Positions 481 to 45,774 of a stretch of 45,774 nucleotides of DNA are shown in pieces. The notes beneath the pieces were generated by a model that saw only the letters and a program-made list of their open reading frames with translations, searched no databases and was not told the origin of the DNA. This stretch comes from a phage, in sequence record PZ349761.1; one strand, written 5' to 3'. The position numbers and the translations under genes are program-made. Numbering within the stretch: position 1 is the first letter of the stretch; each line of letters opens with the position of its first letter.

Positions 481-1002
481 ATGTCAAATCGCATTCAACC
501 AGTAAGCCTTGGTGATGTTATCCGCTACATGGCTAAGCAGGCACTTAAGGCCGACAACAGGACTTTTCATGTTCCAATAAATCTTATAGCTCGCCAGGTT
601 TACGGGCTAACGTCTGATGATATGGGCCGAATCAGCGCTGAAGATCTCGAGGCTGGCGGCAAATACAGTTTGGCAAAGTTGAAGGCTTCATATGTCTCTA
701 ACACAGTTGCCAGGATGTCAGAGATTCAGGAGGCGAACGTTCGGGCTAAGCTGTCAATCAAGGACGGCGACTTCGGTGATGATGTTGACGTTCGATGCGC
801 ATACATCACATTGGTTGATGGGGCAATACAGACAGGAAAGAGAGTTAAGGCCAATAATCAGGTTGCTGAGAATGCGGTGAGCGACTTCAAGGATAGAATC
901 CTTAAGCTAATGCCATCAGTTACTGATCTTGAAGGTGATGAGATTACAGGAGCCATCAAGGCAATCAAGATGTACCAGGAAATGATTAAGGAGGCAAAAT
1001 AA
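481..1002 (+). CDS. hypothetical protein (173 aa)
   Basis: Complete ORF directly after the control region; stop overlaps next start; no recognisable motif. Confidence 0.5.
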   Translation: MSNRIQPVSLGDVIRYMAKQALKADNRTFHVPINLIARQVYGLTSDDMGRISAEDLEAGGKYSLAKLKASYVSNTVARMSEIQEANVRAKLSIKDGDFGDDVDVRCAYITLVDGAIQTGKRVKANNQVAENAVSDFKDRILKLMPSVTDLEGDEITGAIKAIKMYQEMIKEAK

Positions 1003-1532
1003 TGGGGATGTTTGATTTTAACGAAGATAAGCTGACTAATGATGAGATTATGAAGATTTCCATGCGGGATGGACTTCCTCCGCTACGGGTTGCGATCAAT
1101 GCTAATGGATATCGGCAAACTCAACGCCTCTGGGGCAAGCCTGACGCGTCAGAGGTATACATAGATGAAGCGAAGGGCGTTCTGATTAAGCTGATCAGGA
1201 AAATGGCAATGAACGGAAATGGAGTATTGGGGGTGAGGTCTTTATACGAAACCGCACGAAAAGTTAAGCCATTTGAGGGTCGTAATGGAATCATGGTGCG
1301 CATTAAGGACGAGCTCATCCCAGCTCTAGAGGAAATGAATCTAGTTTGCCTCATTGGCGATAAAATTTATGTCCACCCGGCAATCATTGATGAGTATTGG
1401 CAGCCTAACTTCAAAACTTACGAAGGTGAACATGCTAGTAGACTACCATACCACTTGCGGTACAGCGAGGAAGAGGTTGAGGTGGCAATTGAGTTCTATA
1501 GGAAAGCTAAATCACTACTGAATGGTAAATAG
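1002..1532 (+). CDS. truncated paralogue of the 527-aa P-loop protein (N- and C-terminal segments only, ATPase core missing)
   Basis: N-terminus MFDFNEDKL..LPPLRVAINANGYRQ and C-terminal block G..RSLYE.ARKVKPFE..IKD..CLIGDK.Y..P match 42117-43700 (-) but the central ~370 aa with the Walker A motif are absent. Confidence 0.6.
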   Translation: MGMFDFNEDKLTNDEIMKISMRDGLPPLRVAINANGYRQTQRLWGKPDASEVYIDEAKGVLIKLIRKMAMNGNGVLGVRSLYETARKVKPFEGRNGIMVRIKDELIPALEEMNLVCLIGDKIYVHPAIIDEYWQPNFKTYEGEHASRLPYHLRYSEEEVEVAIEFYRKAKSLLNGK

Positions 1533-3898: not shown

Positions 3899-4032
3899 TT
3901 TACGTTCATACGTATTACACTGGCAAGTTTAACAGCGTTAAGCATGTACGTGTTCACGATACCTACGAGAGCGCAAAGGCTCAATGGTTGGTTCTTGGTG
4001 GTGATATTAATTATTATAAACTTGTTGAATAG
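3895..4032 (+). CDS. hypothetical small protein (45 aa)
   Basis: Short ORF with ATGA overlap; ends in TAG inside box at 4029. Confidence 0.3.
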   Translation: MIYVHTYYTGKFNSVKHVRVHDTYESAKAQWLVLGGDINYYKLVE

Positions 4033-4046
4033 CACTAATTGCTAAA
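4029..4046 (+). promoter_or_regulatory. conserved palindromic box ATAGCACtaattGCTAAA
   Basis: 22-nt spacer with hairpin GGGGTAA..TTACCCC, TATAGT 4067-4072, CATCGAAACGA 4078-4088, ATG 4103. Confidence 0.6.
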
Positions 4047-4102
4047 ACAGTACCGGGGTAATTTGTTATAGTTACCCCATCGAAACGAACGAGGAAGAAG
4101 AA

Positions 4103-4315
4103 ATGAAAATTGAAATTATCTACGTAGACTACAAGACAGAGACTGACATTCTCACACTGCGTGACTGTGGTTTCCAGGTTGGAGATGTAGTTGAAGTATC
4201 TGGCCTATACAAAGGAGGGGATCTTTCAATTCAAGCTATCCGTGAAACCGAGCTTGTGAATGTCGGGGATGAGATCAGTATTAGCGAGCATGAATACAAG
4301 GTGGTGGAAGAATGA
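4103..4315 (+). CDS. hypothetical small protein (70 aa)
   Basis: ORF with cassette promoter and RBS GAGGAAG. Confidence 0.5.
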   Translation: MKIEIIYVDYKTETDILTLRDCGFQVGDVVEVSGLYKGGDLSIQAIRETELVNVGDEISISEHEYKVVEE

Positions 4316-7164: not shown

Positions 7165-8730
7165 ATGTCTTTAGTGTGGGAAGAAATGACCATTCAGGAA
7201 AAGATGGCTGTCAAAGCGATATCAGAGCATAGCTTCGAGGGTTTTCTGCGCTGCTGGTTCCAAATAACACAAGGTGAGCGATACATCCCTAACTGGCATC
7301 ACAAGTACTTGTGCAGAATCATTGACGAGATTATCGCAGGGGAACGCAAGGACACCATCATTAACATAGCTCCGGGCAGCGGAAAGACGGAAATCACATC
7401 AATTCACTTCCCTGTATACTCTATGTTGAAGCTGAAGAAGGTTCGAAACCTTAATATCTCTTTCGCCGACTCAAACGTAAAGCGCAACTCAAAACGAGTG
7501 CGTGACTTAATATCATCAAAGGAGTTCCAGGAACTCTGGCCTTGCAAGTTCGGGACAAATAAGGATGACGAGATTCAGATCGTTGACGACAGCGGAAAGG
7601 TTAGATTCGAGTCCATATCAGCATCAAAAGGAGGCAGGATTACTGGCACGCGTGGTGGTTATATCACCGACACATACAGCGGCGCGGTAATGCTGGATGA
7701 CTTCGATAAACCAGACGAGATGTTTTCATCCGTATACAGGGCAAAGAGTCACACGCTGCTTGGCAATACCATTCGCTCACGCCGCGCTAGCTCGGTAAAA
7801 GGGAAGGCAACTCCAATTATCCAGATTCAGCAGCGACTTCACGTCAATGACTCAACGTGGTTCATGCTTAGCGGTGGTATGGGCATTGATTTTGATTTGG
7901 TGAAGATACCAGCACTGGTTACTGAAGATTACGTTGATACATTACCTGACTGGATTAAACAGCAATTCATTGATGACGTATTATCAAGCGAAAATATCGA
8001 GCGTGACGGAGTGAAGTATTACAGCTACTTCCCAGGGAAAGAGTCCGTGCATGACCTGGTTGCGATGTGGGATAGTGACCCGTACACATTCCTTAGCCAG
8101 TATCAACAAGAACCTGTAGCATTGGGCGGAAATCTTATTAACGTAGACTGGTTCCAGCGTCTTAGTGATACATTCAGGCCTCCAGTTAAGTATGATTACA
8201 GATTCATCACATGCGATACCGCGATGACTACAAAGAGTTATAGTGACTTCTCTGTACTTCAGTTGTGGGGATACAAGGATGCTAAGATTTACCTGATAGA
8301 CCAGCTCAGAGGAAAATGGGAAGCGCCGGAGTTGGAGGCTGAACTACTGGACTTCGAGAAGAAATCAAGGGCAACCAGTCAATCAGATGGCATACTCCGA
8401 AAGATCATCATCGAGAAGAAAGCCTCTGGTATCGGCCTGATTCAATCGGCAGGTAGAGTTATGCGAACACCGATAGAGCCATACGTTCCGGATAACGACA
8501 AGCTGACTCGCGTAATGAGCGCATTGCCACAGATTAAGGCTGGTAATGTCGTTCTTCCAGAGTCTGCGCCGTGGCTAAACGGATTGCTTACTGAGGTTGC
8601 TGCTTTTACGGCAGATGATAGCCACAAACACGACGACCAGATTGACTGTCTAACAATGGCAGTAAACCTTGTACTTAACATTGCGGACGACCCAAAAGCG
8701 CGACTAATGCGCATAGCGGGAATTAAATAG
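7165..8730 (+). CDS. terminase large subunit
   Basis: 521 aa; P-loop-like APGSGKTE near N-terminus, acidic nuclease-type C-terminal half; canonical position before portal. Confidence 0.85.
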   Translation: MSLVWEEMTIQEKMAVKAISEHSFEGFLRCWFQITQGERYIPNWHHKYLCRIIDEIIAGERKDTIINIAPGSGKTEITSIHFPVYSMLKLKKVRNLNISFADSNVKRNSKRVRDLISSKEFQELWPCKFGTNKDDEIQIVDDSGKVRFESISASKGGRITGTRGGYITDTYSGAVMLDDFDKPDEMFSSVYRAKSHTLLGNTIRSRRASSVKGKATPIIQIQQRLHVNDSTWFMLSGGMGIDFDLVKIPALVTEDYVDTLPDWIKQQFIDDVLSSENIERDGVKYYSYFPGKESVHDLVAMWDSDPYTFLSQYQQEPVALGGNLINVDWFQRLSDTFRPPVKYDYRFITCDTAMTTKSYSDFSVLQLWGYKDAKIYLIDQLRGKWEAPELEAELLDFEKKSRATSQSDGILRKIIIEKKASGIGLIQSAGRVMRTPIEPYVPDNDKLTRVMSALPQIKAGNVVLPESAPWLNGLLTEVAAFTADDSHKHDDQIDCLTMAVNLVLNIADDPKARLMRIAGIK

Positions 8731-8744
8731 CACGAATTGCTAAA
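8727..8744 (+). promoter_or_regulatory. conserved palindromic box ATAGCACgaattGCTAAA
   Basis: TAG stop of terminase gene inside box; TATAGT 8765-8770; leader CACACCAACGAGAGG; ATG 8802. Confidence 0.6.
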
Positions 8745-8801
8745 CGCTAGAGCCACGGATGGCGTATAGTTACTTCACACCAACGAGAGGAGAAAAGACA
8801 A

Positions 8802-9176
8802 ATGAAAAACAAATCAAAGGCTTTATATCTTGGAAACACCTATGACGAGTGTTGTGAATTCACTCCGGGAAGAGAGTACGATTTTTACGATCTTGGTGAT
8901 GGATTTATTGGTCTTTGCGATGATAATGATACTGAACGTTGCATTAAAAACGGAACGTTCTACAAGTTTAAACTAATCAATGAGGATCATTTTGTAACTG
9001 AAACTGAGTGCGCATCCATGCAGCCTGGCGCCGATAAAAAACCCGAGTTTAGATATTACATCAATGGCGAAGTGGTTACTAAGGTAAAGTTCGACGATAC
9101 GCTATTATGCGTCAAGGACTTTGAATCTAGTGGGGTTGATACATCATCAATCAAGTTCGAAGTAAAATTCGAGTAA
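8802..9176 (+). CDS. hypothetical Cys-containing protein (124 aa), moron-like insert between terminase and portal
   Basis: Own cassette promoter upstream and own terminator downstream. Confidence 0.55.
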   Translation: MKNKSKALYLGNTYDECCEFTPGREYDFYDLGDGFIGLCDDNDTERCIKNGTFYKFKLINEDHFVTETECASMQPGADKKPEFRYYINGEVVTKVKFDDTLLCVKDFESSGVDTSSIKFEVKFE

Positions 9177-15829: not shown

Positions 15830-15847
15830 ATAGCACTTTTTGATAAA
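15830..15847 (+). promoter_or_regulatory. conserved box variant ATAGCACtttttGATAAA
   Basis: 22-nt spacer, TATAGT 15868-15873, CATCGAAACGA 15879-15889, ATG 15907. Confidence 0.55.
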
Positions 15848-15906
15848 GCGCTCATTCAACTTTGATGTATAGTTAACTCATCGAAACGAAATGAGAGATT
15901 AAAGAA

Positions 15907-16155
15907 ATGAATAACGTTAAAAACATCATCAAGATTGCTGCGGTTCTGTTTGCTTTTTATGCGGTAGTTCAGATTATAAACCCAACAGGTGAGGCTGATG
16001 CCAATAGCAAGGCAAACAAATATACTGTTGAATTTGCTAAGGCTGAGCGAGCATGTCAGGAGCTTGTAGGTGGCAAAGTTGACCAAATCATGAAATACGG
16101 CAAAGAGGTTTGTAAGGACTCGGCTGCTAAGATTGCAAAAGAAAACACTAAGTAA
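15907..16155 (+). CDS. small exported/membrane-anchored protein (82 aa), moron-like insert in tail gene cluster
   Basis: N-terminal hydrophobic segment IIKIAAVLFAFYAVVQII; own cassette promoter. Confidence 0.5.
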   Translation: MNNVKNIIKIAAVLFAFYAVVQIINPTGEADANSKANKYTVEFAKAERACQELVGGKVDQIMKYGKEVCKDSAAKIAKENTK

Positions 16156-30152: not shown

Positions 30153-30581
30153 ATGCACGTAATTACTGGTCAGATTCGCCGCGCTCCATTCACTAAAGAA
30201 GGTCAAAACGCAAATGGTAACTGGAAAATGTTTGCAGTTGATTTGAGCGAGCGATACAAGGATAAAGATGGGCAATCACAGTACACAAACTATCGAGCAG
30301 TCTTCTTCGCTAAAGAGTCAATGCTAGATTGGTACAATGAGGCATTTCAAGAAGGTAAAGTTGTTAGCGTTAGCGCAGAGACTCTTTCTGTTGATGTTAG
30401 GGATAAAGATGGCAAGACTTACGTTACTGTCAACATGAACAATCCTAGACTTGAGTTTAGTCAGCGCGGTGAAGGTGGCGTGCAGCAGCAGAATCAACAG
30501 AAGCCACAACAACAGCAACAACAACAGCAACAGCAACAACCGAAGCAACAACAGAACTTTGAGGATGACATCCCGTTCTGA
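30153..30581 (+). CDS. ssb: single-stranded DNA-binding protein
   Basis: OB-fold-sized N-domain, Gln/Pro-rich linker and acidic C-terminal tail ending DDIPF. Confidence 0.85.
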   Translation: MHVITGQIRRAPFTKEGQNANGNWKMFAVDLSERYKDKDGQSQYTNYRAVFFAKESMLDWYNEAFQEGKVVSVSAETLSVDVRDKDGKTYVTVNMNNPRLEFSQRGEGGVQQQNQQKPQQQQQQQQQQQPKQQQNFEDDIPF

Positions 30582-30616: not shown

Positions 30617-33199
30617 TTAACCTATTTTAGTGTAAGTCCATTGGTATGTTGCAGCTCCCTTGGCAGTTATCCCGACAGCTCTTCCACTTACATCCATTGA
30701 AGTGAAAGCGCCAGTTTTTGTAATTGTTATTGATGATGTGGAACCATCAAAAAGTACGTCAGCAATTACACTATAGTTAGGTCCAGCACCAGTAACCCAG
30801 GTCGAAACCTTGTATAAACCAGCGTTGTTTGGCAACTCAAAAAGACCAGTTGAAACATTCGCCTGAACAGCCATCGCGCCCTTTCCGGTGTACACACCGT
30901 CAGTTTTAAGACCTAATGATGAATATGTTTGCTTATAGCCACCAATGATGGCACCACCCATAGGTTCAGTAAACCAGTTCACATTACCCTGACTAACAAC
31001 AGATATCGCTGGAGACCCCCCTTTAGCTGACTGAAACCTACCGCTTAAAATGTCAATTCTAGATGCTGAATCCTGGGCGTAGATAGTTACAGGATACCCA
31101 CCAGAACCAGTGTAAACCAAGCCGTTATCATTAATGTCATCTTCAGACGAGTCAATGATTACATGGGAAGTTCCAGACGCCTTGATGAACGAAACAACAC
31201 CGCTAGAACCAGCACCTGTTGTTCTAACTTCATTCTTCCATGATGTTAGGCCTGAAATTCTGCCATTTGAGTTATTAAACCTAATCAGGCAACAATCTTG
31301 CGATCCGTTGGTGTCAATAATGTTACCTTCAACGTCCATCCCTAGTATGTTTACGCTATGGCTGTTGATGAAGTTAATCCCAGCACCACCGTAAGAACCA
31401 GATGTTGATGATATATTACTGGCATCCATTGCGCAGTTAATCATTGTAACGCTCATTACCGAACCAAATTCATAAGGTGAAATGCAATCTGATGCGTAAC
31501 AAGTCTCAAGCAATATTGTCGTTCCCGTCGCCTTTATGAATCCAGTCCTGCAATTCCTGGCCCAAACATTCTGTAGCTTAGTCTGGTATGTTCCAGTGGT
31601 GTCCGTGTAGCAACCCCATGCTCCATGGACTGTGCAATCTTTGATACATGAATTTTCTAGCCCTGTTGCAGAACCAACATTAGAAACGAAGTTAAATGCT
31701 ATCTTTTGATCATTCCCTGATGCTGAGGTAGGTGTAGTGCCTGGGTTATAAAAAATGTAAAGTCCCTCAATAAACACTTGATACATTCTTATGTTTTGCG
31801 CATCACCCTGAACCAGGGCGAATAGGTTTATGTTCCCATCAACTGAGATAAATGTTTGCGCCCTGTTAATTTGGTTTGTTCCCTCGCCAATAATTCTTGT
31901 ACTGTTGCCAATCCTCACCGTCCTGTTAATGAACATAAAACCTTTTGGTATGTATACAGTTTTACCGGTATTAACTGCCGCCTGAAGCGCAACTGCGTCA
32001 AGTGACTCGTTAAGGTTTGATGCAAATGGATAAACAAACCGCGCATCCTCAATTGTCGAGAATTTAGATGAAAGAGGAACTAAAGTACCATTGTTTGTAG
32101 CACCAAAATCCATGACGTTAACAAAGTCACCAAGTTTACTATCCTTACTCCTTTCTACAAATGAGGCCAATGTAGATTTGTAATTCATCGAACTGAATTG
32201 TGATTGAGCCTCTATCTTTGAATAAACATCTGATCTTGGGTAAACCTCTGATTTTGAATAAACATCAAGCAAACCCCTAGCTCTTTCAGCAGTAGCGCCG
32301 CCAACCGACTTCCCGCCTTCAACCATAATGTATTCGCGTAAGTAGAAGTTTCTTGATCCTTTAGCGCCCGCCATCCTGAGGTGAGTAGCCCTATATGATG
32401 AATCAGAATTCAATGCCGGATATATATCAATCTCATAAGAGCCTTGAGCTCCACTTGTGCCCCTAACACATATAAAAAGCGTAGCGTTGGCTGTAGTGTA
32501 TGTCGCAGCTAGTGATGCTGGAACGTTTGTCATGTTAGATACTACAACTCGATAATTACCACCACTTTTAAATTCAACTTGCTGCCAATCCAATGATGGC
32601 ATAGCTATTGTCGATGTGCTTGCGATACCCTCATTGGCTAGAGTAACCAAAGTTGCAGCATCACCAGCGTTGGCAATGACATTAACTGTGTTGTTGTATG
32701 CCTCCTGCGCACTACTTGCGCTTGATTCAGCCTGAGCCTTGCTTGTAGCGGCAGCTTGCTGGCTGGCAGATGCAGCCGATTCGCTTGAAGCCGCATTTGT
32801 TTCGCTTGCCTTCGCCTCATCAACTAATCGTTGTAACTTATCGAAATCAAAATCACCAGATTCAGCCAACTCAACAAGTGACGCAACCTCAGTTTCACGT
32901 GACTGATAGTAACGAAGAGTTTCCGCAACATCCTGAGCTAGCCCCTGAACGGTAATTCCATCATGCGCAAGGATAGCGTAACCAGTTCCAGCAGGAACAG
33001 TTTCGGAGTTAGGGTTGTAAACATTAATCTGCGTATCGCTGATAATTTCTGAGATGGTGTAAATCTGTACTGGTTCAGTTTTAAATACAATGGTTGCACC
33101 TACGCGAATCAGTGTAAGAGGTGCTTTCCATGTTGTCCCGACGCCAGTCACCTCACCACTTGCTGCTAGAGAAGCTGTTCCTGAGTCATAAATTGCCAT
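30617..33199 (-). CDS. lateral tail fibre / tailspike with predicted right-handed beta-helix
   Basis: About 860 aa; Ala/Ser-rich N-terminal linker, long Gly/Asn/Thr/Ser-rich repetitive region; start set to ATG 33199 with RBS GGAG (track start is GTG 33229). Confidence 0.65.
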   Translation of the reverse strand: MAIYDSGTASLAASGEVTGVGTTWKAPLTLIRVGATIVFKTEPVQIYTISEIISDTQINVYNPNSETVPAGTGYAILAHDGITVQGLAQDVAETLRYYQSRETEVASLVELAESGDFDFDKLQRLVDEAKASETNAASSESAASASQQAAATSKAQAESSASSAQEAYNNTVNVIANAGDAATLVTLANEGIASTSTIAMPSLDWQQVEFKSGGNYRVVVSNMTNVPASLAATYTTANATLFICVRGTSGAQGSYEIDIYPALNSDSSYRATHLRMAGAKGSRNFYLREYIMVEGGKSVGGATAERARGLLDVYSKSEVYPRSDVYSKIEAQSQFSSMNYKSTLASFVERSKDSKLGDFVNVMDFGATNNGTLVPLSSKFSTIEDARFVYPFASNLNESLDAVALQAAVNTGKTVYIPKGFMFINRTVRIGNSTRIIGEGTNQINRAQTFISVDGNINLFALVQGDAQNIRMYQVFIEGLYIFYNPGTTPTSASGNDQKIAFNFVSNVGSATGLENSCIKDCTVHGAWGCYTDTTGTYQTKLQNVWARNCRTGFIKATGTTILLETCYASDCISPYEFGSVMSVTMINCAMDASNISSTSGSYGGAGINFINSHSVNILGMDVEGNIIDTNGSQDCCLIRFNNSNGRISGLTSWKNEVRTTGAGSSGVVSFIKASGTSHVIIDSSEDDINDNGLVYTGSGGYPVTIYAQDSASRIDILSGRFQSAKGGSPAISVVSQGNVNWFTEPMGGAIIGGYKQTYSSLGLKTDGVYTGKGAMAVQANVSTGLFELPNNAGLYKVSTWVTGAGPNYSVIADVLFDGSTSSITITKTGAFTSMDVSGRAVGITAKGAATYQWTYTKIG

Positions 33200-33222
33200 T
33201 GTGTAGAGTCTCCATTTGTAAA

Positions 33223-33240
33223 ATAGCACGAATTGCTAAA
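33223..33240 (+). promoter_or_regulatory. conserved palindromic box ATAGCACgaattGCTAAA with no plus-strand gene downstream
   Basis: Lies about 24 nt upstream of the minus-strand tail fibre ATG and lacks the downstream -10 and leader. Confidence 0.5.
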
Positions 33241-34213: not shown

Positions 34214-34268
34214 AGTTACCTCCGCAAACAATAAAGGCACTATACATAATGCACAGTGCCATTGTTTA

Positions 34269-34748
34269 TCAAATCGTGCTGTTTTTCTCTTTCTTCTTCT
34301 GGTTCTCTAATTTAATTTTGCGCCAGGAGCGACATTCAGGCTTTGTGGCTAGTTCAGCCTCAGTAACTACGCGCAGCATGTGACGTTTTTTGCAACGAAG
34401 CGTCAATGGCTTTCCGTTACCGTCGAATTGCAGGTCTGGCCTGCAGAATGTAGCGCGAAAACCTTCTCCATTTCGCTTATAGTAGTTGTGCGAAAGTTGA
34501 GCTCCACGTGCAGAAATCATACCACGCTTAAACCATTCCTCTACAGCCTGTGGCGTTACCTTTAACTGCTTCGCTATATTCGCCTTTGTGCCGAAGAAAT
34601 CAAGAACCATCTCCAGCCGTGCTCGTAAGCCAGCCCTTACTTCATCTTTTAATACGTAGTAGCCTGAAGGTCGTTTACGTTGTTTTTTGTCTTTGGTGCG
34701 GACGGTTCCGTTATTACCGTTAATTGTTCGTTTGTCGACTGAACTCAT
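34269..34748 (-). CDS. putative HTH DNA-binding protein (transcriptional regulator candidate)
   Basis: Basic N-terminus, helix-turn-helix-like IAKQLKVTPQAVEEWFKRG; first gene of minus operon at a divergent control region. Confidence 0.5.
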   Translation of the reverse strand: MSSVDKRTINGNNGTVRTKDKKQRKRPSGYYVLKDEVRAGLRARLEMVLDFFGTKANIAKQLKVTPQAVEEWFKRGMISARGAQLSHNYYKRNGEGFRATFCRPDLQFDGNGKPLTLRCKKRHMLRVVTEAELATKPECRSWRKIKLENQKKKEKNSTI

Positions 34749-34760
34749 TTGATCACCTCA

Positions 34761-34778
34761 ATAGCATTTTTTGTTAAA
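34761..34778 (+). promoter_or_regulatory. conserved box variant ATAGCATtttttGTTAAA in divergent control region
   Basis: Between divergent HTH gene and helicase gene; leader CTCAATTAAACGC; ATG 34850. Confidence 0.5.
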
Positions 34779-36844: not shown

Positions 36845-37260
36845 AGATTACAGATAAAGAAGATTACATTGAGTTTTACCCTGGTCCGGTTAAGTCATGC
36901 CCTAAAGAGGATGACGAACAAATCTTTTGCTCTGATTGGGTTAAGTATAACTACCCAGATATGGTATTTTTCCATTGCGTGAATGAGGGAAAGAAAACCA
37001 TTGGTCAAGCAAGAAAAGACCAGGCTAAGGGGCTTCTAAAAGGCGTATCAGACTGTATGTTTCTTATTCCTGAATCACTTCGAGGTAAGTATCCTTTCGG
37101 AGCTATAGAGCTAAAGAGGGCTGGCAAAACTCAAGCAAGTCCAGTCAGCGAAGAACAGAAGGCATTCCTGAAAAGTGTAATGGAATCAGGCGGTTTCTCG
37201 GCAGTCGCCTACGGACGCGAGGGTTTTCTGGCAGCATTTAAAGAAATGATTTCAAAATAG
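36841..37260 (+). CDS. VRR-NUC-type nuclease domain protein
   Basis: D..E.K pattern (SDCMF..GAIELKRAGK); ATGA overlap with helicase. Confidence 0.55.
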   Translation: MKITDKEDYIEFYPGPVKSCPKEDDEQIFCSDWVKYNYPDMVFFHCVNEGKKTIGQARKDQAKGLLKGVSDCMFLIPESLRGKYPFGAIELKRAGKTQASPVSEEQKAFLKSVMESGGFSAVAYGREGFLAAFKEMISK

Positions 37261-37274
37261 CACGAATTGCTAAA
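37257..37274 (+). promoter_or_regulatory. conserved palindromic box ATAGCACgaattGCTAAA
   Basis: TAG stop inside box; TATTAT 37295-37300; CATCGAAACGA 37306-37316; ATG 37339. Confidence 0.6.
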
Positions 37275-37338
37275 GACGAATCGGTGAGGTGGTGTATTAT
37301 CACTTCATCGAAACGAAACAGAAAGAGAGAGAAACAAA

Positions 37339-37542
37339 ATGGCTACTATCTACACTGGAAAATTCTACGAATCACGCAAAACTGGTTATATGTATGAACT
37401 GGCAATAACAACAAGCGTTGGATATATACTGATTGATGTTGATGATAAGTCTTACGCATTCGAAGTTAGTCCAACCTACAAAGATGATTTAGAAACTGTT
37501 AAAAACGCATTTGGCGAAAAATTTGATGAGGTGTCAGAATGA
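37339..37542 (+). CDS. hypothetical small protein (67 aa)
   Basis: ORF with cassette promoter. Confidence 0.45.
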   Translation: MATIYTGKFYESRKTGYMYELAITTSVGYILIDVDDKSYAFEVSPTYKDDLETVKNAFGEKFDEVSE

Positions 37543-39084: not shown

Positions 39085-40215
39085 ATGGCAACCGCAAAAA
39101 TCACCAACGAACAATTGCGCGAAGAGTTAGCAAATGGCATGACCAACAAGGCAATCGCAGAGAAGTACGGAATGAACATTCGCAACGTTGAATTGCGTCG
39201 CAGTAAATTAGCTAAACAAGGCGAAGGGCATGGTCGCGATGTAAGCAACTTAATCCCTCAGGGCTATGCAGTTAAAGGCGTCTCCAGCTTAATTGGTGCT
39301 GATGGCGAGATTAAGCAACAGTGGGTTAAATCAGATATCGACAAGGAGAAGCAAGAAGAGATGATGCTTCAGGCAATTCAGGCCCTAACTGATGAGTTGC
39401 CGCGTGAGAAAGTTAAAGCCTTAAGGGTTGGTTTGTTTGAGGACACTTTAAGCCTTTACCCCGTATTCGACCTTCACATTGGCGCAATGGCTCATCATGC
39501 TGAGTGCGGAGAGAATTATAGCACCGAAATCGCTGAACGAGTCCTTAATGACTACTTTGATTATGCGGTTGCAAAAGCCCCTAACTCAAAGAGGGCTGTA
39601 TTGCTGATTGGTGGTGACTTCCTTCACTCTGACGGAATGGAAGCTGTAACTCCAACGAGTAGACATATTCTTGACCAAGATAGCCGCTATCACAAACTTG
39701 TTTACGTAGCAGTGCGAGCAACTCGCCGAGCAATTAGTAGAATGCTTGATAAGCACGCCGAGGTTGAAGTTCAGATTATCCCAGGAAATCACGATCTCTC
39801 AGGTATGATTTGGCTTCGTGCTGCAATGGCAGCTTTCTATATGGATGAGCCTCGAGTTAGTGTTGATACGTCCCCAGCTGCGCTTCACGTAACGCAATTT
39901 GGGAAGACGCTGCTTGGTTACTGCCATGGGCACGAACTCAAAAAGCCTGATACACGACTATCAGCACTGGCTCGTGACCATCGAAAAGCATTTGGTGAAT
40001 CAGAGTATGTTTACACCCATTCAGGCCACTACCACCATCAAACTATTACGGAAGGAAATCTGGGTATTGATGAATCACACGGCCAGCTTGGAGCGAAAGA
40101 TGCGTACAGTGCTAACGGAGGTTATCGCTCTTACCGACAGGCTTCGGTGATAATTTATAGTCCTGAGTTTGGTGAGATTGGACGATTTACTTGCCGACCT
40201 GAAATGTTTAGTTAA
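39085..40215 (+). CDS. calcineurin-like metallophosphoesterase with N-terminal HTH-like domain
   Basis: Ordered motifs DLHIG, GGDFLHSDG, PGNHDL, CHGHE, HSGHYHH match the metallophosphatase signature; N-terminus has helix-turn-helix-like NKAIAEKYGMNIRNV. Confidence 0.6.
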   Translation: MATAKITNEQLREELANGMTNKAIAEKYGMNIRNVELRRSKLAKQGEGHGRDVSNLIPQGYAVKGVSSLIGADGEIKQQWVKSDIDKEKQEEMMLQAIQALTDELPREKVKALRVGLFEDTLSLYPVFDLHIGAMAHHAECGENYSTEIAERVLNDYFDYAVAKAPNSKRAVLLIGGDFLHSDGMEAVTPTSRHILDQDSRYHKLVYVAVRATRRAISRMLDKHAEVEVQIIPGNHDLSGMIWLRAAMAAFYMDEPRVSVDTSPAALHVTQFGKTLLGYCHGHELKKPDTRLSALARDHRKAFGESEYVYTHSGHYHHQTITEGNLGIDESHGQLGAKDAYSANGGYRSYRQASVIIYSPEFGEIGRFTCRPEMFS

Positions 40216-40299: not shown

Positions 40300-40476
40300 A
40301 TGACTAAAATGATTTATTGCACCAAGAACAACTCCAAGACACTGCCATTTACAGTTAACCAACCGTACAATGCAGAGTACCAGGGTGACGGATACTACAA
40401 GATTTACGGCGACGATATGACGTGGATTTTAGCGCCGATTGATGGTTCGCTGGTTGAATTTATTATCGCAGACTAG
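40300..40476 (+). CDS. hypothetical small protein (58 aa)
   Basis: Short ORF with cassette promoter and RBS ACGAGG; read by eye. Confidence 0.4.
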   Translation: MTKMIYCTKNNSKTLPFTVNQPYNAEYQGDGYYKIYGDDMTWILAPIDGSLVEFIIAD

Positions 40477-40502
40477 CGCATCTAAAACATAGCTTTACAA
40501 GT

Positions 40503-40528
40503 GGGGGGCCTTTTGGCTCCCCTTTTTT
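40503..40528 (+). terminator. rho-independent terminator
   Basis: G-rich/C-rich hairpin followed by T6. Confidence 0.55.
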
Positions 40529-40580
40529 GTGCTTCTTTTCCGAGCAGGGCTGCTGTATCATTCTTTTACTAACTTAAACA

Positions 40581-40823
40581 TTGACAGATAGACAAATGGA
40601 GGATCACATGAGGGAAGTAATCAACGCCGCTACGGCGTCAACTGGAGGGGCAGCGGTAACTGGAGCGGCAACTGGTCAGATGACTATAGCAATAATCAGC
40701 CTTATCGCTTTAATCATTTTTGGTGCGTGGGGTGCTTACTGGAAGTTTAAGGATAGCCAGGCGATTCGGCGCGCTCTTGAATCAGGAGACTTAAAAACAG
40801 CAATCAAGATAAGGAGTAAGTAA
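40581..40823 (+). CDS. holin (pinholin-like, two predicted TMDs)
   Basis: 80 aa; weakly hydrophobic Gly/Ala-rich segment then strongly hydrophobic MTIAIISLIALIIFGAWGAY, charged C-terminus; immediately upstream of endolysin. Confidence 0.55.
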   Translation: MTDRQMEDHMREVINAATASTGGAAVTGAATGQMTIAIISLIALIIFGAWGAYWKFKDSQAIRRALESGDLKTAIKIRSK

Positions 40824-41309: not shown

Positions 41310-41674
41310 TAGTGTGCGTAGCTTTATCTGGATGTTCGGCAACTGATGCACTGACTGGATTGATTGGAAGCAAGCCGGAAGTTACAGCTCAGGTCGGGGC
41401 TGAGAACAACAAGGTTGGCGTTGGGTTAACGAATAAGGTCGATTCCAGCAGCTCCAGTGAAGCCACGGTTAAAGATTCTAAAGTTGGGTCACTTGATAGC
41501 TCAAGCGGGAAAAAGACTGCTGACAACTCTATTAAGGCATCTACAATCACTGCCGAAAAGATTGAGATTACCAACAACGACTCATCCGCGCCTCCATGGA
41601 TTGTAATGGGAGCTATGGGGTTGCTGTTTTTTGTTCCACTTACCGCAATCTTAAGACGCAAAAAAGCCTCCTAA
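41285..41674 (+). CDS. unimolecular spanin (N-terminal lipoprotein signal plus C-terminal TMD)
   Basis: Lipobox LSGC after signal peptide; C-terminal WIVMGAMGLLFFVPLTAIL then RRKKAS; last gene of lysis cassette. Confidence 0.65.
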   Translation: MFKWIAALVVCVALSGCSATDALTGLIGSKPEVTAQVGAENNKVGVGLTNKVDSSSSSEATVKDSKVGSLDSSSGKKTADNSIKASTITAEKIEITNNDSSAPPWIVMGAMGLLFFVPLTAILRRKKAS

Positions 41675-41690
41675 TGGAGGCTATATTTTT
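41661..41690. terminator. bidirectional terminator between lysis cassette and minus-strand genes
   Basis: GCCTCC-taat-GGAGGC hairpin flanked by A-run and T-run. Confidence 0.65.
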
Positions 41691-42116: not shown

Positions 42117-43700
42117 TCACCCCAGCAATCTCGGATTAATGTAAACTTTATCACCAATCAGGCACGTATAGTTTTTCTCATCAAGCATTGGCAGTAAGTG
42201 ATCTTTAATCTTCGTCATCACTCCAGCCTGAGCCTCGAACGGCTTAACCTTTCGCGCCGCTTCATACAGTGAACGAATACCAACTACGCCTTTACCGTTC
42301 TTACCTTGCTTGATTAGTATATCAATCAACTTGTTCATCTCGGCATTGTCTCCAGCGTGACCGGCGGCGTTAGCGGATGACAGGTAAGTCTTGCTAAGTT
42401 CCTGGAAGATAATGACGGCTTCTTGCATCGTATCTAACTCAATTTCTCTCGACTTCTGCGGACTACCACCGTTAGGGTTGAACCAGTTACGCACAGTGTG
42501 AAGTACCGCTGCAATCCTTATTGCCTGTTTATCAAACTTACCCAAAGCGCCGCGCAACATTGTGTGTGAATACTTTCCTCCGTCAGCAAGGTGAGGCTCC
42601 ATCTCCTGGCGTGCTCGGTTGAGATATTTCATTGCAGAGTTACTCACTGTCAGCTTAACATCTTGCTCATTCATTATTTCGTGAACCAAGCGGAAGTAGT
42701 CAGCCTTCAGGCCACCATCAATTGGCTCGTATGTTGAATCTCCATTCTCATCAACAAAAACACGCTCACCCAGGAATGACTTCTCGCGTACAAGCAGAAA
42801 ACGTTCCGACACGCCGATTCCACGAGCGCCCGCGTTCATGATCGCATTTATTGTTTCATCCTGCGCAATTACCGAGATGCAACCCATAGCAACGAAGCTC
42901 ATGTTGTTCTCTGCGTTTGCACGCGCGATAGATACGTTACCCGCATCCCATGCCTTCAGTACAAGCTCGCTGTTCGTTTTCTTTGAGCCATCACCATAGG
43001 TCATGCCCAGAAGTGAGTTCACGCTCGTTGCCTCGTCAGAGATAACAGCGAAGTTTCCCTGGCGATTGTTGATTCTGGCTAGACCTTCAGGTGTTGTATC
43101 GGACACGGGGAATACTATGTCACAAAGTTTCTCTAGCTTTTCCTCAAGTTCCTCTTTCTCCTCAAAAAGTGAGGCCATCTCTGATGGTGACTTTTCCTGC
43201 TTCATCTCCTTGGATAATGCAGATAGTTTAGCCATTATTTTCTTGCGCTCGCGCTTTCGCACTTCATTAAGCCGCTCAGTCTCAGCGATCATTGGAGCAA
43301 TAGAAAGTGAGTTGATTGCTGATTTACCAGTCGATGGCGGCTGGCTTGTTACGACGTACAGCGAGGTTGGTTGCTGAGTCCCGTGATATTCAACAGTAAA
43401 TCGTCCAAGCATGGCGGCAGAAATACACCCCAGAAAGTGCATGTATGCGGATGACTCTGGAAACTGGACCGAACGAGCAATATTGGCTGAAAGTTTGCCA
43501 ACAACATCAATATCATTACCGAGTGAGATTACTGGATACTTGTCATTTGCCGCATCAATCTCGACAGGAGCTTTCCAGAATGATTGAGACTGACGATAGC
43601 CATTAGCATTAATAGCCACTCGCAGGGGTGGGAGGTTGTCTGCGGCAGCAATTGCCATAACCTGTTCAACAGATAGTTTATCTTCGTTGAAATCAAACAT
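42117..43700 (-). CDS. P-loop NTPase of unknown function (full-length paralogue of 1002-1532)
   Basis: Walker A-like PPSTGKS; N- and C-terminal segments shared with the 176-aa protein at 1002-1532. Confidence 0.6.
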   Translation of the reverse strand: MFDFNEDKLSVEQVMAIAAADNLPPLRVAINANGYRQSQSFWKAPVEIDAANDKYPVISLGNDIDVVGKLSANIARSVQFPESSAYMHFLGCISAAMLGRFTVEYHGTQQPTSLYVVTSQPPSTGKSAINSLSIAPMIAETERLNEVRKRERKKIMAKLSALSKEMKQEKSPSEMASLFEEKEELEEKLEKLCDIVFPVSDTTPEGLARINNRQGNFAVISDEATSVNSLLGMTYGDGSKKTNSELVLKAWDAGNVSIARANAENNMSFVAMGCISVIAQDETINAIMNAGARGIGVSERFLLVREKSFLGERVFVDENGDSTYEPIDGGLKADYFRLVHEIMNEQDVKLTVSNSAMKYLNRARQEMEPHLADGGKYSHTMLRGALGKFDKQAIRIAAVLHTVRNWFNPNGGSPQKSREIELDTMQEAVIIFQELSKTYLSSANAAGHAGDNAEMNKLIDILIKQGKNGKGVVGIRSLYEAARKVKPFEAQAGVMTKIKDHLLPMLDEKNYTCLIGDKVYINPRLLG

Positions 43701-43756
43701 TACTTCTCTCCGTGTTGTTTCTGAGCGGCCATTATAACAACGACCGCTTATAAAGC

Positions 43757-43774
43757 ATTATCAATTTGTGCTAT
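43757..43774 (-). promoter_or_regulatory. conserved box variant (minus strand reads ATAGCACaaattGATAAT)
   Basis: Follows TAA stop of upstream micro-ORF; about 20-nt spacer then TATAAT (plus 43731-43736); ATG of P-loop gene at 43700. Confidence 0.5.
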
Positions 43775-43890
43775 TAATTGTTCTTAATCCACTTTAAACA
43801 CATCCACAATGCAGCCCCATAGAATGCAATCTTAAGAACTTCAGCTAAGACAAGGATAATAAAGTATCCACCACCAAGTAAATCAATCAT
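43774..43890 (-). CDS. hydrophobic micro-protein (38 aa, single predicted TMD)
   Basis: Short ORF with ATGA overlap to upstream gene; read by eye. Confidence 0.3.
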   Translation of the reverse strand: MIDLLGGGYFIILVLAEVLKIAFYGAALWMCLKWIKNN

Positions 43891-44126
43891 TTTTTAATCT
43901 CCATTTCCACAATTTCATAACTTATGTAATTATTTATCATTCCAATAAGTGATTTTGGGTATGTCTTCATATGCTTCTTGGCGGAATCTTCATCAAGATG
44001 TGCTGATATGTTGTGAAAATTGTATTCATAATCCATGCCAATTAGTATGTATATCTTATCGTGAGCATTAATGAAGTTATTTGATTTTATTTCCCCAAGC
44101 GACCAGTCCTTTCCTTTTCTAATCAT
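43887..44126 (-). CDS. hypothetical small protein (79 aa)
   Basis: ORF from track. Confidence 0.45.
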   Translation of the reverse strand: MIRKGKDWSLGEIKSNNFINAHDKIYILIGMDYEYNFHNISAHLDEDSAKKHMKTYPKSLIGMINNYISYEIVEMEIKK

Positions 44127-44476
44127 TTGTATTGAGCCTCAAAGCGATAGTCGCCGCAAACTGTAACAAAGCCAACATCTTCGTCGCGATATAGCTGCCA
44201 TGCGCTGCCATCTTTATCGTAAATGTACCCAGCGCGCTTACCAAGTCCAGCATGGAGATCTACTTGATATCTCTTCCCTTCAGTGAAGTATTTACGAATG
44301 GATGAGCGATGATTAACCTTTGTGCAGTAAATGGTCTTGGTCTTGATATATTTGCCGCGCTCTTCCAGATTAATCCATTTACCATATTTCTTGATTTGCT
44401 CTACGCTATCTTTTACTCTGGCTTTGTATAATACGTTTTCGTTGCTGATCCAGTTTTTGGTAATCGTAGTGGTCAT
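44123..44476 (-). CDS. hypothetical protein (117 aa)
   Basis: ORF preceded on minus strand by cassette (leader CTCATAGAAACGAAAC). Confidence 0.5.
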   Translation of the reverse strand: MTTTITKNWISNENVLYKARVKDSVEQIKKYGKWINLEERGKYIKTKTIYCTKVNHRSSIRKYFTEGKRYQVDLHAGLGKRAGYIYDKDGSAWQLYRDEDVGFVTVCGDYRFEAQYK

Positions 44477-44538
44477 TTTGCTTTCCTTTGTGTGTTTCGT
44501 TTCTATGAGCTGAATATACAGTAGAAGCCCAGAAGGGC

Positions 44539-44557
44539 TTTAGCAATTAGTGCTATT
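44539..44557 (-). promoter_or_regulatory. conserved palindromic box (minus strand reads AATAGCACtaattGCTAAA)
   Basis: Upstream ORF 44540-44791 reads through the box and stops at the TAA of GCTAAA; hairpin AAGCCC-ttct-GGGCTT follows. Confidence 0.55.
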
Positions 44558-44791
44558 TATTGCCTTTCGCCCAAGTGGTGTTATCGCTACCTTATACCAA
44601 GTTCCAATTTCTGGATTATTTACATTATATGCCAGATCTACATAGCCTAGCCGAAATAGTTTTGGTATACACCTGGATGAATTGCCTGAGTCTCGAATCC
44701 TGCCTCGATTAAAGTCATAGCTTATTTGATGAATCTCTCCATTATGAATGCGGTGGAGGGTTTTTATTGCGGATTCAGAAATTTTAATCAT
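44540..44791 (-). CDS. hypothetical small protein (83 aa)
   Basis: ORF from track; C-terminal 5 codons encoded by the box. Confidence 0.45.
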   Translation of the reverse strand: MIKISESAIKTLHRIHNGEIHQISYDFNRGRIRDSGNSSRCIPKLFRLGYVDLAYNVNNPEIGTWYKVAITPLGRKAINSTNC

Positions 44792-44958
44792 TTACTTTCA
44801 CCGTTAATATTATTTGCTTTTTCTATCGCCTTGAGCATAATTTCATGACTCTCAAGCAAGTCTTCGCGGAACCAATCACCGCAAGGCCAACCCTTACCGC
44901 TGTAGGCGCTTATGACCTCAAGATCGAAATAATTTATCTCAGATGGCAGTAGCATCAT
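44788..44958 (-). CDS. hypothetical small protein (56 aa)
   Basis: Short ORF with overlapping start/stop on both sides; read by eye. Confidence 0.35.
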   Translation of the reverse strand: MMLLPSEINYFDLEVISAYSGKGWPCGDWFREDLLESHEIMLKAIEKANNINGESK

Positions 44959-45194
44959 TTCACCTCGTCAAAAGTTGCAATCCCAGGAATAAACATCCCA
45001 ACCTTCCAGCCTGCAATGGCAATCCATCCAGAATCGTGCTTATGCGGTCGCTCAGCGCCATTAATAACCCACTCGTTCGGGATTACCTTGCCGTTAATGA
45101 TTAGCGGCTCAGCGTCGTATACAGAGCCTTTTACGAATGGTGTAAGAACCTTTTTGTCGGTGCTTGTAATAACGTTAGTGCAGCGAATTTTCAT
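44955..45194 (-). CDS. hypothetical small protein (79 aa)
   Basis: ORF from track. Confidence 0.45.
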   Translation of the reverse strand: MKIRCTNVITSTDKKVLTPFVKGSVYDAEPLIINGKVIPNEWVINGAERPHKHDSGWIAIAGWKVGMFIPGIATFDEVK

Positions 45195-45364
45195 TCTACC
45201 ACCTCAAACTCACCATGGTGAATAACAAGCGGCTTAGATGTGCCATCCATTATTACAACCCTTCCATCTCCGCAATCCATGAGCACATCGTGAACTTCGC
45301 CAATCTCAATGCCGTAATAATCTGGCGTGTAAATCGTGTCAAACTTAACAATCTTAATTTTCAT
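45191..45364 (-). CDS. hypothetical small protein (57 aa)
   Basis: ATGA overlap; RBS GAGG; read by eye. Confidence 0.35.
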   Translation of the reverse strand: MKIKIVKFDTIYTPDYYGIEIGEVHDVLMDCGDGRVVIMDGTSKPLVIHHGEFEVVE

Positions 45365-45374
45365 TTCTCAATCC

Positions 45375-45554
45375 TCAAATAAATGGCAGACATTCGGCGC
45401 AGCCAAGTCCATCGCAGCACAGGAATTCATCTTCTGACTGGAGTTGCTTGGCTAAGTCTATATCCAACTTTCCGCGCAACACAAAGTTAGTGTAATCTTC
45501 GTTAAGCCCAATCAGTGCGCATTCGTGGCGTAACTCATCTTTATCAATCTTCAT
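45375..45554 (-). CDS. small Cys-rich protein (59 aa)
   Basis: ORF directly downstream of minus-strand cassette; CCDGLGCAEC cluster. Confidence 0.4.
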   Translation of the reverse strand: MKIDKDELRHECALIGLNEDYTNFVLRGKLDIDLAKQLQSEDEFLCCDGLGCAECLPFI

Positions 45555-45607
45555 ATCTATCTCCTCGTTTTGATGAGTTAACTATATCCTCCATGACCAC
45601 TAATGTC

Positions 45608-45625
45608 TTTAGCAAAAAGTGCTAT
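45608..45625 (-). promoter_or_regulatory. conserved palindromic box (minus strand reads ATAGCACtttttGCTAAA)
   Basis: Minus strand downstream: TATAGT, CATCAAAACGAGGAG, ATG 45554. Confidence 0.55.
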
Positions 45626-45774
45626 TCGTTAGATTTATGTATTGTTGCAGATATTGCAATGATTCTCATGACTATTGCACATATAGCAATATTGCTTCAG
45701 ATGCAATGATGTTTTTGATTGTTGCGAAAAGTGAAATGAAGTTGGGAGTGAGCGAATGAAAGATGGATGGACTA

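Follow-up and report, generated by a model that had tools for sequence, protein, structure and literature searches.

At the right end of a 45,774-nt stretch of phage DNA (record PZ349761.1; hereafter the window), eight small open reading frames (ORFs) lie on the minus strand between positions 43774 and 45554, and we found that they fall into two groups, each headed by a 17-nt box, with a third box at the head of the helicase gene that follows. We consider it reasonably probable (about 60%) that these are consecutive box-promoter units, driven by the host polymerase, whose small genes are early accessory genes for host takeover, counter-defense or replication support. The first module (P1) would read o59, o57, o79a, o56 and o83, the second (P2) would read o117, o79b and o38, and the third (P3) would read the gene of a DUF3987 helicase; within a unit, the genes would be translationally coupled via ATGA overlaps. 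Host sigma-70 RNA polymerase would use the modules unaided by phage factors, which would make expression early, and the small proteins would act by binding host or phage proteins, with the genes of a variable slot serving host takeover or counter-defense.

A conserved box heads a promoter-like module

The box is an inverted repeat (TAGCA-N5-TGCTA), and we found 42 occurrences of a relaxed box pattern in the window, compared to 15.9 ± 3.9 in shuffled sequences. At the 20 box sites with no more than two mismatches, a TAnnnT hexamer lies 20–23 nt downstream in 16, and exactly 21 nt downstream in 13. Most aligned boxes continue with taccyCATCGAAACGA (the consensus of 18 modules), followed by a Shine-Dalgarno (SD) motif and an ATG that is 67–89 nt from the start of the box. 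The complete module consists of the 17-nt box, 21–22 nt of spacer, TAnnnT, a CATCGAAACGA-like leader and the ATG. In the cluster, the distances from box start to ATG are 71, 80 and 74 nt for the three boxes, all of which are on the minus strand and co-oriented with the downstream gene. If the modules work as promoters, most mRNAs of this phage would start with a common leader of ~12 nt. The conserved module of ~60 nt also occurs elsewhere in the window (for example at 4029–4110, 8727–8805, 15830–15910 and 37257–37340), and its 21-nt spacer is often a GC hairpin.

The boxes are conserved along with the genes that they precede. The o59 homolog is preceded by a box in every relative that has o59, and a box follows the o56/o83 genes, as box 2 does here, in all 14 Braunvirinae- and Rogunavirinae-type relatives. 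Moreover, the order box, small genes, box, o117 homolog, box, helicase is found in 16 of 16 relatives, including T1 and Bas11.

A 21-nt direct repeat, aaATAGCACnnnTTGnTAAAA, has been described in 21 copies in phage TLS and was also noted for T1, Rtp and Rogue1; it is co-oriented with transcription and lies ~76 nt upstream of start codons, and its proposed roles, among which the authors did not decide, are a stoperator, an enhancer site or an UP-like element (PMC11447400, German/Kropinski group). The box agrees with this repeat in its sequence, in its co-orientation with genes and in its distance from start codons (71–80 nt here, compared to ~76 nt in TLS), and we identify the two with each other. 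The published account does not include three features that we observed: the fixed 21-nt spacing to the −10-like hexamer, the CATCGAAACGA leader, and the use of the TAG or TAA of the box as the stop codon of the upstream gene.

The palindrome also lends itself to a different explanation, one we judge unlikely, in which the boxes are operator or "stoperator" sites for a dimeric phage regulator, or terminator-associated punctuation, and the cluster is a single long transcript from the terminal region that is gated at each box. The half-sites are one helical turn apart, as would suit such a regulator, and the TLS authors themselves proposed stoperators or enhancer sites (PMC11447400). Many of the spacers between box and −10 hexamer carry GC hairpins, including a predicted short hairpin (AGCCC-TTCT-GGGCT) in the box 2 spacer, at the position of which the SU57 record annotates an ARNold terminator. 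In addition, a gene for a protein with a Cro-like helix-turn-helix (HTH) is flanked by boxes, and one perfect box has no −10 element (both described below). However, the fixed 21-nt distance to TAnnnT, the conserved leader and the placement of the ATG make up the geometry of a promoter. If TAnnnT is the −10 hexamer, the center of the box would be ~42 nt upstream of the start, which is where one would typically expect an activator and not a roadblock. Furthermore, in phage Bas11, the upstream region of gene 54, which holds a box, supports expression in the absence of the phage, and expression falls when this region is mutated. We examined the box 2 hairpin as an intrinsic terminator and found it unconvincing, with no U-tract and a fold no better than those of shuffled sequences (z-score −1.59). 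Promoter and operator or stoperator roles of the box can also coexist.

Two further loci in the window bear boxes in unusual settings. A perfect box, ATAGCACGAATTGCTAA, is found at 33223–33239 on the plus strand between two minus-strand genes, where it overlaps the GTG start of an 870-aa ORF (30617–33229); neither a −10 hexamer nor a leader lies behind it, and it is an orphan or antisense-oriented copy. The Cro-like HTH protein (159 aa; Pfam P22_Cro E = 3e-6, below cutoff) is encoded at 34269–34748 on the minus strand, with box variants on both sides (34266–34282, minus strand; 34761–34777, plus strand). Its gene is the positional counterpart of the Bas11 "putative transcriptional regulator" gene adjoining the primase gene, and its product is a candidate binder of the palindromic box.

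The eight genes are tightly packed and under constraint

The original prediction, made by reading the DNA alone, was of a single operon of at least seven tightly overlapping minus-strand genes of 38–117 aa, driven by boxes at 45608 and 44539. We found eight such ORFs (Table 1). At five of the seven junctions, the genes overlap by 4 nt (ATGA), and the other two junctions are a 10-nt gap between o59 and o57 and a 63-nt gap between o83 and o117 that holds a box and a promoter module. An SD-like motif (GGAG, GAGG or AAGG) lies 6–13 nt upstream of all eight starts. Both boxes exist, at 45609–45625 and 44540–44556, but the coordinates first given were those of their 3′ edges and one base off. That boxes drive the genes is in keeping with the module geometry and the conserved leader, of which the boxes form part; by contrast, the single operon has to be replaced by two box-headed units and a third that carries the helicase gene. 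The prediction had also singled out a Cys-rich 59-aa protein (CCDGLGCAEC), a 38-aa peptide with one transmembrane domain, and an ORF at 44540–44791 whose last five codons are encoded by the box. We recovered all three: o59, with the C terminus LCCDGLGCAECLPFI; o38, with one hydrophobic span (Kyte-Doolittle 19-residue maximum of 2.15); and o83, which ends N-S-T-N-C and a TAA inside box 2.

To assess conservation, which the original prediction had named as a check, we compared the homologous region from 16 relatives by tblastn, calculated ratios of nonsynonymous to synonymous substitution (dN/dS) by the Nei-Gojobori method, and applied a binomial test for a deficit of nonsynonymous changes. We found every one of the eight ORFs again in relatives, with dN/dS below 1; each remains uninterrupted and of equal length wherever the corresponding DNA is present, and most of them are annotated as coding sequences (CDS) or hypothetical proteins in the GenBank records of relatives. 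Values of dN/dS were 0.01–0.23 across o56, o79a, o117 and o59 (0.07–0.21 for o59 alone and 0.01–0.23 for o56), 0.12–0.14 for o38, 0.20–0.33 for o57, 0.19–0.46 for o83 and 0.27–0.41 for o79b. The deficit was very strong for o59 (P = 1.5e-5), o79a, o56 (P = 1e-12), o117 and o38 (P = 0.0006–0.002), and moderate for o57 (P = 0.013–0.03) and o83 (P = 0.005 vs BEK3). These substitution patterns indicate that the cluster genes are real and under purifying selection. The best-conserved of them is o79a, with 90–96% amino acid identity across subfamilies. Two metagenomic o79a homologs (P0168 and P0169) shift after residue ~39 into the frame of a 33-aa ORF at 44960–45061 (minus strand); these are frameshifted genes or assembly errors and provide no evidence for an overlapping 33-aa ORF.

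We considered that several of the small ORFs (o79b, o38, o83 and o57) might be untranslated, chance frames in mosaic spacer DNA, which we find highly improbable. These ORFs are indeed short (38–83 aa) and patchy, with o38 found in 8 and o83 in 7 phage-database records (compared to 99 for o59), and they either lack a PHROG or match one weakly. Neither BEK3 nor the RefSeq record of DTL has the o83 homolog annotated, and the substitution pattern of o79b is not significantly different from neutral (P = 0.06–0.15). Nevertheless, their frames are open and their lengths kept wherever the DNA is present, the nonsynonymous deficits of o38, o83 and o57 are significant, each of them has an SD-like motif and, apart from o57 behind its 10-nt gap, a start coupled through ATGA, and phage genomes of this family contain almost no unused DNA. 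The coding evidence is weakest for o79b, which is present in SU57, Msk/OzMSK and T145P1 and annotated as a CDS in SU57 and OzMSK.

Table 1. Genes, boxes and module elements of the cluster, with the helicase gene downstream, in order of reading (window coordinates)
Feature	Position	Strand	Description	Basis
Box 1	45609..45625	-	ATAGCACTTTTTGCTAA; head of module P1	Exact match to box pattern
P1 -10-like hexamer	45581..45586	-	TATAGT, 22 nt below box 1	Promoter scan: AAGACA-17-TATAGT ending 45581
P1 conserved leader	45565..45575	-	CATCAAAACGA, then GGAG and ATG at 45554	Alignment of 18 window promoter modules
o59	45375..45554	-	59 aa; C terminus LCCDGLGCAECLPFI; pI 4.3; phrog_9053	ORF list
o57	45191..45364	-	57 aa; acidic, probably beta-rich; sporadic accessory gene; phrog_14327 (weak match)	ORF list
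o79a	44955..45194	-	79 aa; phrog_4448	ORF list
o56	44788..44958	-	56 aa; acidic; core gene; phrog_4548	ORF list
o83	44540..44791	-	83 aa; basic, pI 9.75; rare accessory gene in variable slot	ORF list
Box 2	44540..44556	-	ATAGCACTAATTGCTAA; head of module P2	Exact match to 17-nt core
P2 -10-like hexamer	44513..44518	-	TATATT, 21 nt below box 2; downstream CATAGAAACGA	Module alignment
o117	44123..44476	-	117 aa; basic, all-beta (predicted); core gene; phrog_2684	ORF list
o79b	43887..44126	-	79 aa; sporadic accessory gene; without PHROG	ORF list
o38	43774..43890	-	38 aa; single-pass hydrophobic peptide; stop codon overlaps first base of box 3	ORF list
Box 3	43758..43774	-	ATAGCACAAATTGATAA; head of helicase-gene module P3	One mismatch to 17-nt core
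P3 -10-like hexamer	43731..43736	-	TATAAT, 21 nt below box 3, then leader	Module alignment
DUF3987 helicase/ATPase	42117..43700	-	527 aa; downstream context; T1 gp9 homolog	Pfam DUF3987 E = 9.8e-42

Core genes, exchangeable cargo and box-encoded tails

We found o79a, o56, o117 and o59 in nearly all Braunvirinae- and Rogunavirinae-type relatives, and homologs of o117 also in T1 (ST7, 39% identity) and Bas11 (gp48, 41% identity), while the distribution of o57, o83, o79b and o38 is patchy. From this distribution we regard the first four as core genes and the last four as swappable cargo. Among the 16 relatives, the set of o57, o83, o79b and o38 is found only in T145P1 (L003), and there o57 takes a divergent 63-aa form (31% identity) that we also found in one other relative (L011). 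Only four protein clusters close to o83 were detected among 5.8 billion proteins, and in that collection the homologs of o117, o79a and o83 are all from close relatives, on phage-sized contigs of up to ~58 kb, mostly 43–52 kb.

The slot occupied by o83 has different contents elsewhere: Sd1 and Bas11 carry a Dcm methyltransferase gene there, CJ19 has a hypothetical gene of 669 nt (approximately the size of a methylase gene), and SU57, OzMSK and CEB_EC3a have other small ORFs. We read this slot, from its contents across relatives, as a site of cargo exchange. At other sites in the cluster, HNH endonuclease genes are inserted in DTL and T1.

The position of o83 also accounts for its unusual C terminus. 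Throughout the window, boxes abut the preceding genes, several of which stop at the TAG of the box or at a TAA that touches its first base, and o83 crosses box 2 in the third frame and stops at the TAA that ends the box. In 8 of the 16 relatives (L001, L002, L006 and L008–L012), which do not have o83, the o56 homolog abuts the box instead and ends ...KARNSTNC, encoded by the same box in the same frame. The occurrence of the same NSTNC tail on o56 homologs in relatives without o83 argues that the box-encoded tail is a side effect of a gene lying packed against the conserved DNA of the box and is not peculiar to o83.

The cluster is syntenic with the gene 54 region of Bas11

In Bas11 (JohannLBurckhardt; MZ501085.1), gene 54 is on the minus strand at 39780–39980, and the gene order is gp55 / box / gp54-gp53-gp52-gp51-gp50 / Dcm / gp48 / gp47 / gp46 / gp45. 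Since gp48 is homologous to o117 (E = 6e-24) and gp46 to the 527-aa helicase of the window (68% identity), we consider the cluster to be the counterpart of the Bas11 gene 54 region. The two regions have in common that they are syntenic minus-strand clusters and that a box lies within the 76-nt gap that precedes gene 54. They differ in that Gp54 has no sequence homolog among the ORFs of the window; searches with Gp54 against the window and its ORFs by tblastn and phmmer yielded nothing better than E ~0.4. Homologs of Gp54 are present in 215 other phage records, mostly those of larger Drexlerviridae.

Gp54 of Bas11 is the second trigger of the CapRelSJ46 toxin-antitoxin defense system (Zhang et al., Nature 2024, PMC11578894; PDB 9axb). 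In that work, escape mutations "immediately upstream" of gene 54 lowered Gp54 levels, and uninfected MG1655 produced Gp54-Flag from a pBR322 plasmid with the "native promoter" (PMC11578894). The expression of gene 54 is the best evidence available, and is indirect, that box modules may be used by host polymerase alone, and early timing of the cluster genes, which the original prediction had called probable, is plausible by analogy. A counter-defense flavor may plausibly be added to this, given a non-essential CapRelSJ46 trigger in the syntenic unit, the Dcm gene that occupies the o83 slot in Sd1 and Bas11, and the mosaic nature of the cargo.

The same layout of box, small genes, box, o117 homolog, box and DUF3987 helicase, in the same position and orientation, is found in T1 (ST1–ST7, upstream of the ST9 helicase), Rtp, Rogue1, SU57, DTL and OzMSK. 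By GenBank notes, o59, o79a and o56 correspond to rtp74, rtp73 and rtp72, and o117 corresponds to T1 ST7; all are hypothetical proteins. The cargo, in contrast, varies between phages, and T1 has only ST7 and ST9 in common with the window at the level of detectable sequence similarity. The cluster also resembles the early accessory and counter-defense arrays of other phages (T7 0.3/Ocr, T4 and T5 pre-early genes, anti-CRISPR operons) in its short, packed, fast-turnover genes near a genome end, its strong (here putative) promoters, its several acidic products, and the presence of a methyltransferase in the same slot in relatives. It differs from them in having neither homology to a characterized inhibitor nor an Aca-like regulator inside the array, and function is here read from context.

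Several observations weigh against our preferred reading of host-driven early accessory units. Our literature search found neither this phage nor a close relative covered by transcript, timing or protein data, and it yielded no transcriptomes or maps of transcription start sites for T1-like phages. The box does not serve as a canonical −35 element, a role that we rejected because its TTGCTA is 22–23 nt from the −10 hexamer and too far away, and its palindrome might mark a regulator site instead of a polymerase contact. The Gp54-Flag immunoblot from Bas11 does not exclude plasmid read-through. None of the cluster ORFs matches a known anti-defense or host-takeover family, and the coding evidence for o79b is weak, its nonsynonymous deficit falling short of significance. 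Finally, the likeness of o117 to Gp54 (see below) comes from a predicted model, with an hhalign probability below 1%, and Gp54 itself is a protein of no assigned function.

o117 may be a two-barrel protein

An AlphaFold2 model of o117, built from a 36-sequence alignment, is all-beta with 11 strands (pLDDT of 81), and we predict from it a two-domain protein that would consist of small barrels of the SH3/Sm-like type; nucleic acid binding is frequent in this fold class. The protein is basic (pI 9.5). Its conserved part spans approximately residues 44–117, and a profile search of 1.84 billion cluster representatives returned only 25 o117-family clusters, a few of the hits being stand-alone proteins of 75–82 aa. 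In BFVD, the o117 domain matches stand-alone proteins of 62–75 aa from other siphophages. In the model, residues 47–113 form a six-stranded small beta-barrel with a prominent long loop between strands 1 and 2, and fit the published description of the Gp54 barrel. We conclude, on the strength of the predicted structure, that the C-terminal part of o117 (approximately residues 44–117) is a Gp54-type small barrel. Homology to Gp54 in sequence was rejected (hhalign probability of 0.6%), and no Gp54-like proteins appeared in the o117 profile search. The two proteins also differ in kind, Gp54 being a non-essential stand-alone protein of 66 aa, whereas o117 is a two-domain protein of 117 aa encoded by a core gene. 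The name DUF2693, given in GenBank to the UDF157lw homolog of o117, was likewise rejected, with no match to that Pfam model even at E ≤ 10 for o117, for 35 homologs or for the UDF157lw protein.

The barrel led us to weigh the idea that the cluster is a counter-defense island built largely on one phage-specific scaffold, in which the Gp54-type barrel of the o117 C-terminal domain, perhaps diverged in o79a and o57, would be a fast-evolving module for binding host proteins that is recognized by sensors such as CapRel. We regard this as very doubtful. If it were true, core proteins of the o117 type would act throughout the Drexlerviridae as general triggers or inhibitors of immunity that a phage could not easily lose. 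Close homologs of Gp54 from SECphi27, Bas5, Bas8 and Bas10 do not activate CapRelSJ46 (PMC11578894).

A different role for o117 is suggested by its position, since its homolog lies immediately upstream of the DUF3987 helicase unit in 16 of 16 relatives, including T1 ST7 and Bas11 gp48. In our preferred reading, the basic, two-barrel o117 would be an accessory to replication or nucleic acid handling. It can be argued further that the P2 unit (o117, o79b and o38), and perhaps the whole cluster, is a replication module that provides helicase accessory, loader or origin factors and is not host-directed or concerned with counter-defense at all. The constant position of o117, the strong evolutionary constraint upon it, its basic charge and its predicted fold class all speak for this proposal, which we nonetheless hold to be somewhat unlikely. 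No cluster protein was similar to a known loader, primase or initiator in our searches, HNH endonuclease genes, methylase genes and unrelated small ORFs have been freely inserted between the cluster genes, and in Bas11, phage remained viable after large deletions of gene 54 and nearby genes (PMC11578894).

Searches with the remaining proteins

The functions of the cluster proteins had been described as unknown in the original prediction, and our searches left them so: none of the eight ORFs matched a significant family in Pfam, NCBIfam, PADLOC or PDB sequences, profile searches of the PDB with the o117 and o83 families were empty, and an exact-sequence cluster look-up of the cluster proteins returned no names. 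Six of the eight ORFs belong to PHROGs of unknown function (9053, 14327, 4448, 4548, 26489 and 2684). Three products, o59, o57 and o56, are acidic (pI 4.3–4.8).

Across 12 relatives, o59 keeps all five of its Cys residues (C12 and those of CCxGxGCxxC) as well as the [IL]P[FW] that comes next, and in the simplest reading this protein is probably a metal-binding, four-Cys knuckle. The [2Fe-2S]-binding Fer2_BFD domain, after which the UDF157lw homolog is named in GenBank, carries two pairs of Cys ~30 residues apart, the N-terminal pair being CxC; in o59, the N-terminal part contributes only C12, with CCx4Cx2C at the C terminus. We rejected this assignment, having found no Pfam match for o59 (E ≤ 1) or for the UDF157lw protein (E ≤ 10).

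The last residues of o59 raise the question of a likeness to the tip of the single-stranded DNA-binding protein (SSB). The SSB of the window (30153–30581, plus strand) has a long poly-Q linker and the C terminus FEDDIPF, like the tip of Escherichia coli SSB. Bas11 gp50 ends CGCEFDPACKRCFPF, and its clear homologs T1 ST6 and a CJ19 protein, which are syntenic, acidic and 69–71 aa in length, end DDYIPW and FDDGIPF, resembling the C-terminal tip of SSB. It is possible that the CJ19 and T1 ST6 proteins are mimics of the SSB tail; our literature search yielded no description of them. The end of o59 itself is ...CAECLPFI, in which Cys residues stand in place of an acidic run, and Phe is terminal in only 3 of the 12 relatives. 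Homology of o59 to the Bas11 gp50/T1 ST6 family is statistically unsupported (E = 0.018 by blastp against a tiny database; 2–3% probability by hhalign), and we kept it as a lead only. A remote possibility along these lines is that o59, Bas11 gp50, T1 ST6 and the CJ19 protein all display an [IL]PF tip like that of SSB, in o59 on a Cys4 knuckle, that would compete for the SSB-tail pockets of host repair and replication enzymes.

The C-terminal half of o83 has the look of a winged helix, which is a weak lead: as a winged-helix or MarR-like protein, it had no Pfam match, reached only E = 0.052 with NCBIfam BilQ (against a 125-bit cutoff), and matched nothing in PDB sequence and profile searches. 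The hydrophobic o38 would be a small inner-membrane peptide. We rejected the idea that it is a holin or a lysis-cassette peptide, since o38 is in the helicase-proximal unit and the holin, endolysin and spanin genes of relatives are in a plus-strand block beyond the helicase unit. Two papers that came up in our searches, a PNAS paper on daunorubicin and a paper on KanT1 SH3, are about other genes.

The phage and the place of the cluster in its genome

The cluster and its flanks are 88–92% identical in DNA sequence to those of Veterinaerplatzvirus T145P1, SU57, Msk/OzMSK, BEK and DTL, all of them T1-like coliphages in the family Drexlerviridae, most belonging to the subfamily Braunvirinae. The window follows the T1 gene order, with a plus-strand arm (small genes, terminase, structural genes) and then a minus-strand block at the right end that reads toward a bidirectional terminator at 41665–41682. 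From this identity and gene order, we assign the window to a lytic, T1-like coliphage of the Drexlerviridae, of Braunvirinae type. Positions 43774–45554 are the outer portion of the minus-strand block, read leftward from the non-coding gap that separates the divergent arms. The helicase downstream is 98–99% identical to that of close Braunvirinae-type relatives, 83–95% identical to that of more distant ones, and 58% and 68% identical to T1 ST9 and Bas11 gp46, respectively.

Three side observations concern the ends of the genome and the database records. At the opposite end, a 176-aa ORF (1002–1532, plus strand) was matched in a tblastn search with Bas11 gp46 over the N-terminal residues 3–42 and the C-terminal residues 456–524 (the latter at 40% identity) of the DUF3987 helicase; it looks like a truncated helicase paralog without the ATPase core, and Pfam gives no match to it. 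The non-coding DNA upstream of box 1 (45626–45774, minus strand) is rich in short ATTGCA/TGCAAT repeats and has the 13-mer AAACATCATTGCA in common with the equivalent region of Bas11 (40368–40600), and this part of the gap between the divergent arms may have a role in regulation or packaging. Last, MG065688.1, "Campylobacter phage A110b" (44.2 kb), is 89% identical to the region, and one record labeled Pseudomonas also matches; these host labels look doubtful, and the records may represent contaminating T1-like phages.

Meaning for T1-like phages

The cluster is the standard, mosaic small-gene region in the right arm of T1-like phages, a kind of region that is already known and whose products are hypothetical proteins in more than 100 genomes. 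To this our analysis adds three modest points: the predicted link in fold between o117 and Gp54, the full geometry of the putative promoter module, and the protein tails that boxes encode.

Coliphages of the T1-like group are common in the laboratory and in therapy, and ~40 small genes at the ends of their genomes have no assigned function. Only one region of such a phage encodes a small protein with a demonstrated role in immunity, the CapRel trigger Gp54, and the cluster is syntenic with that region. Thus, the cluster offers a short list of candidates for host-takeover and counter-defense screens, comprising the core genes o59, o79a, o56 and o117 and the cargo genes o57, o83, o79b and o38.

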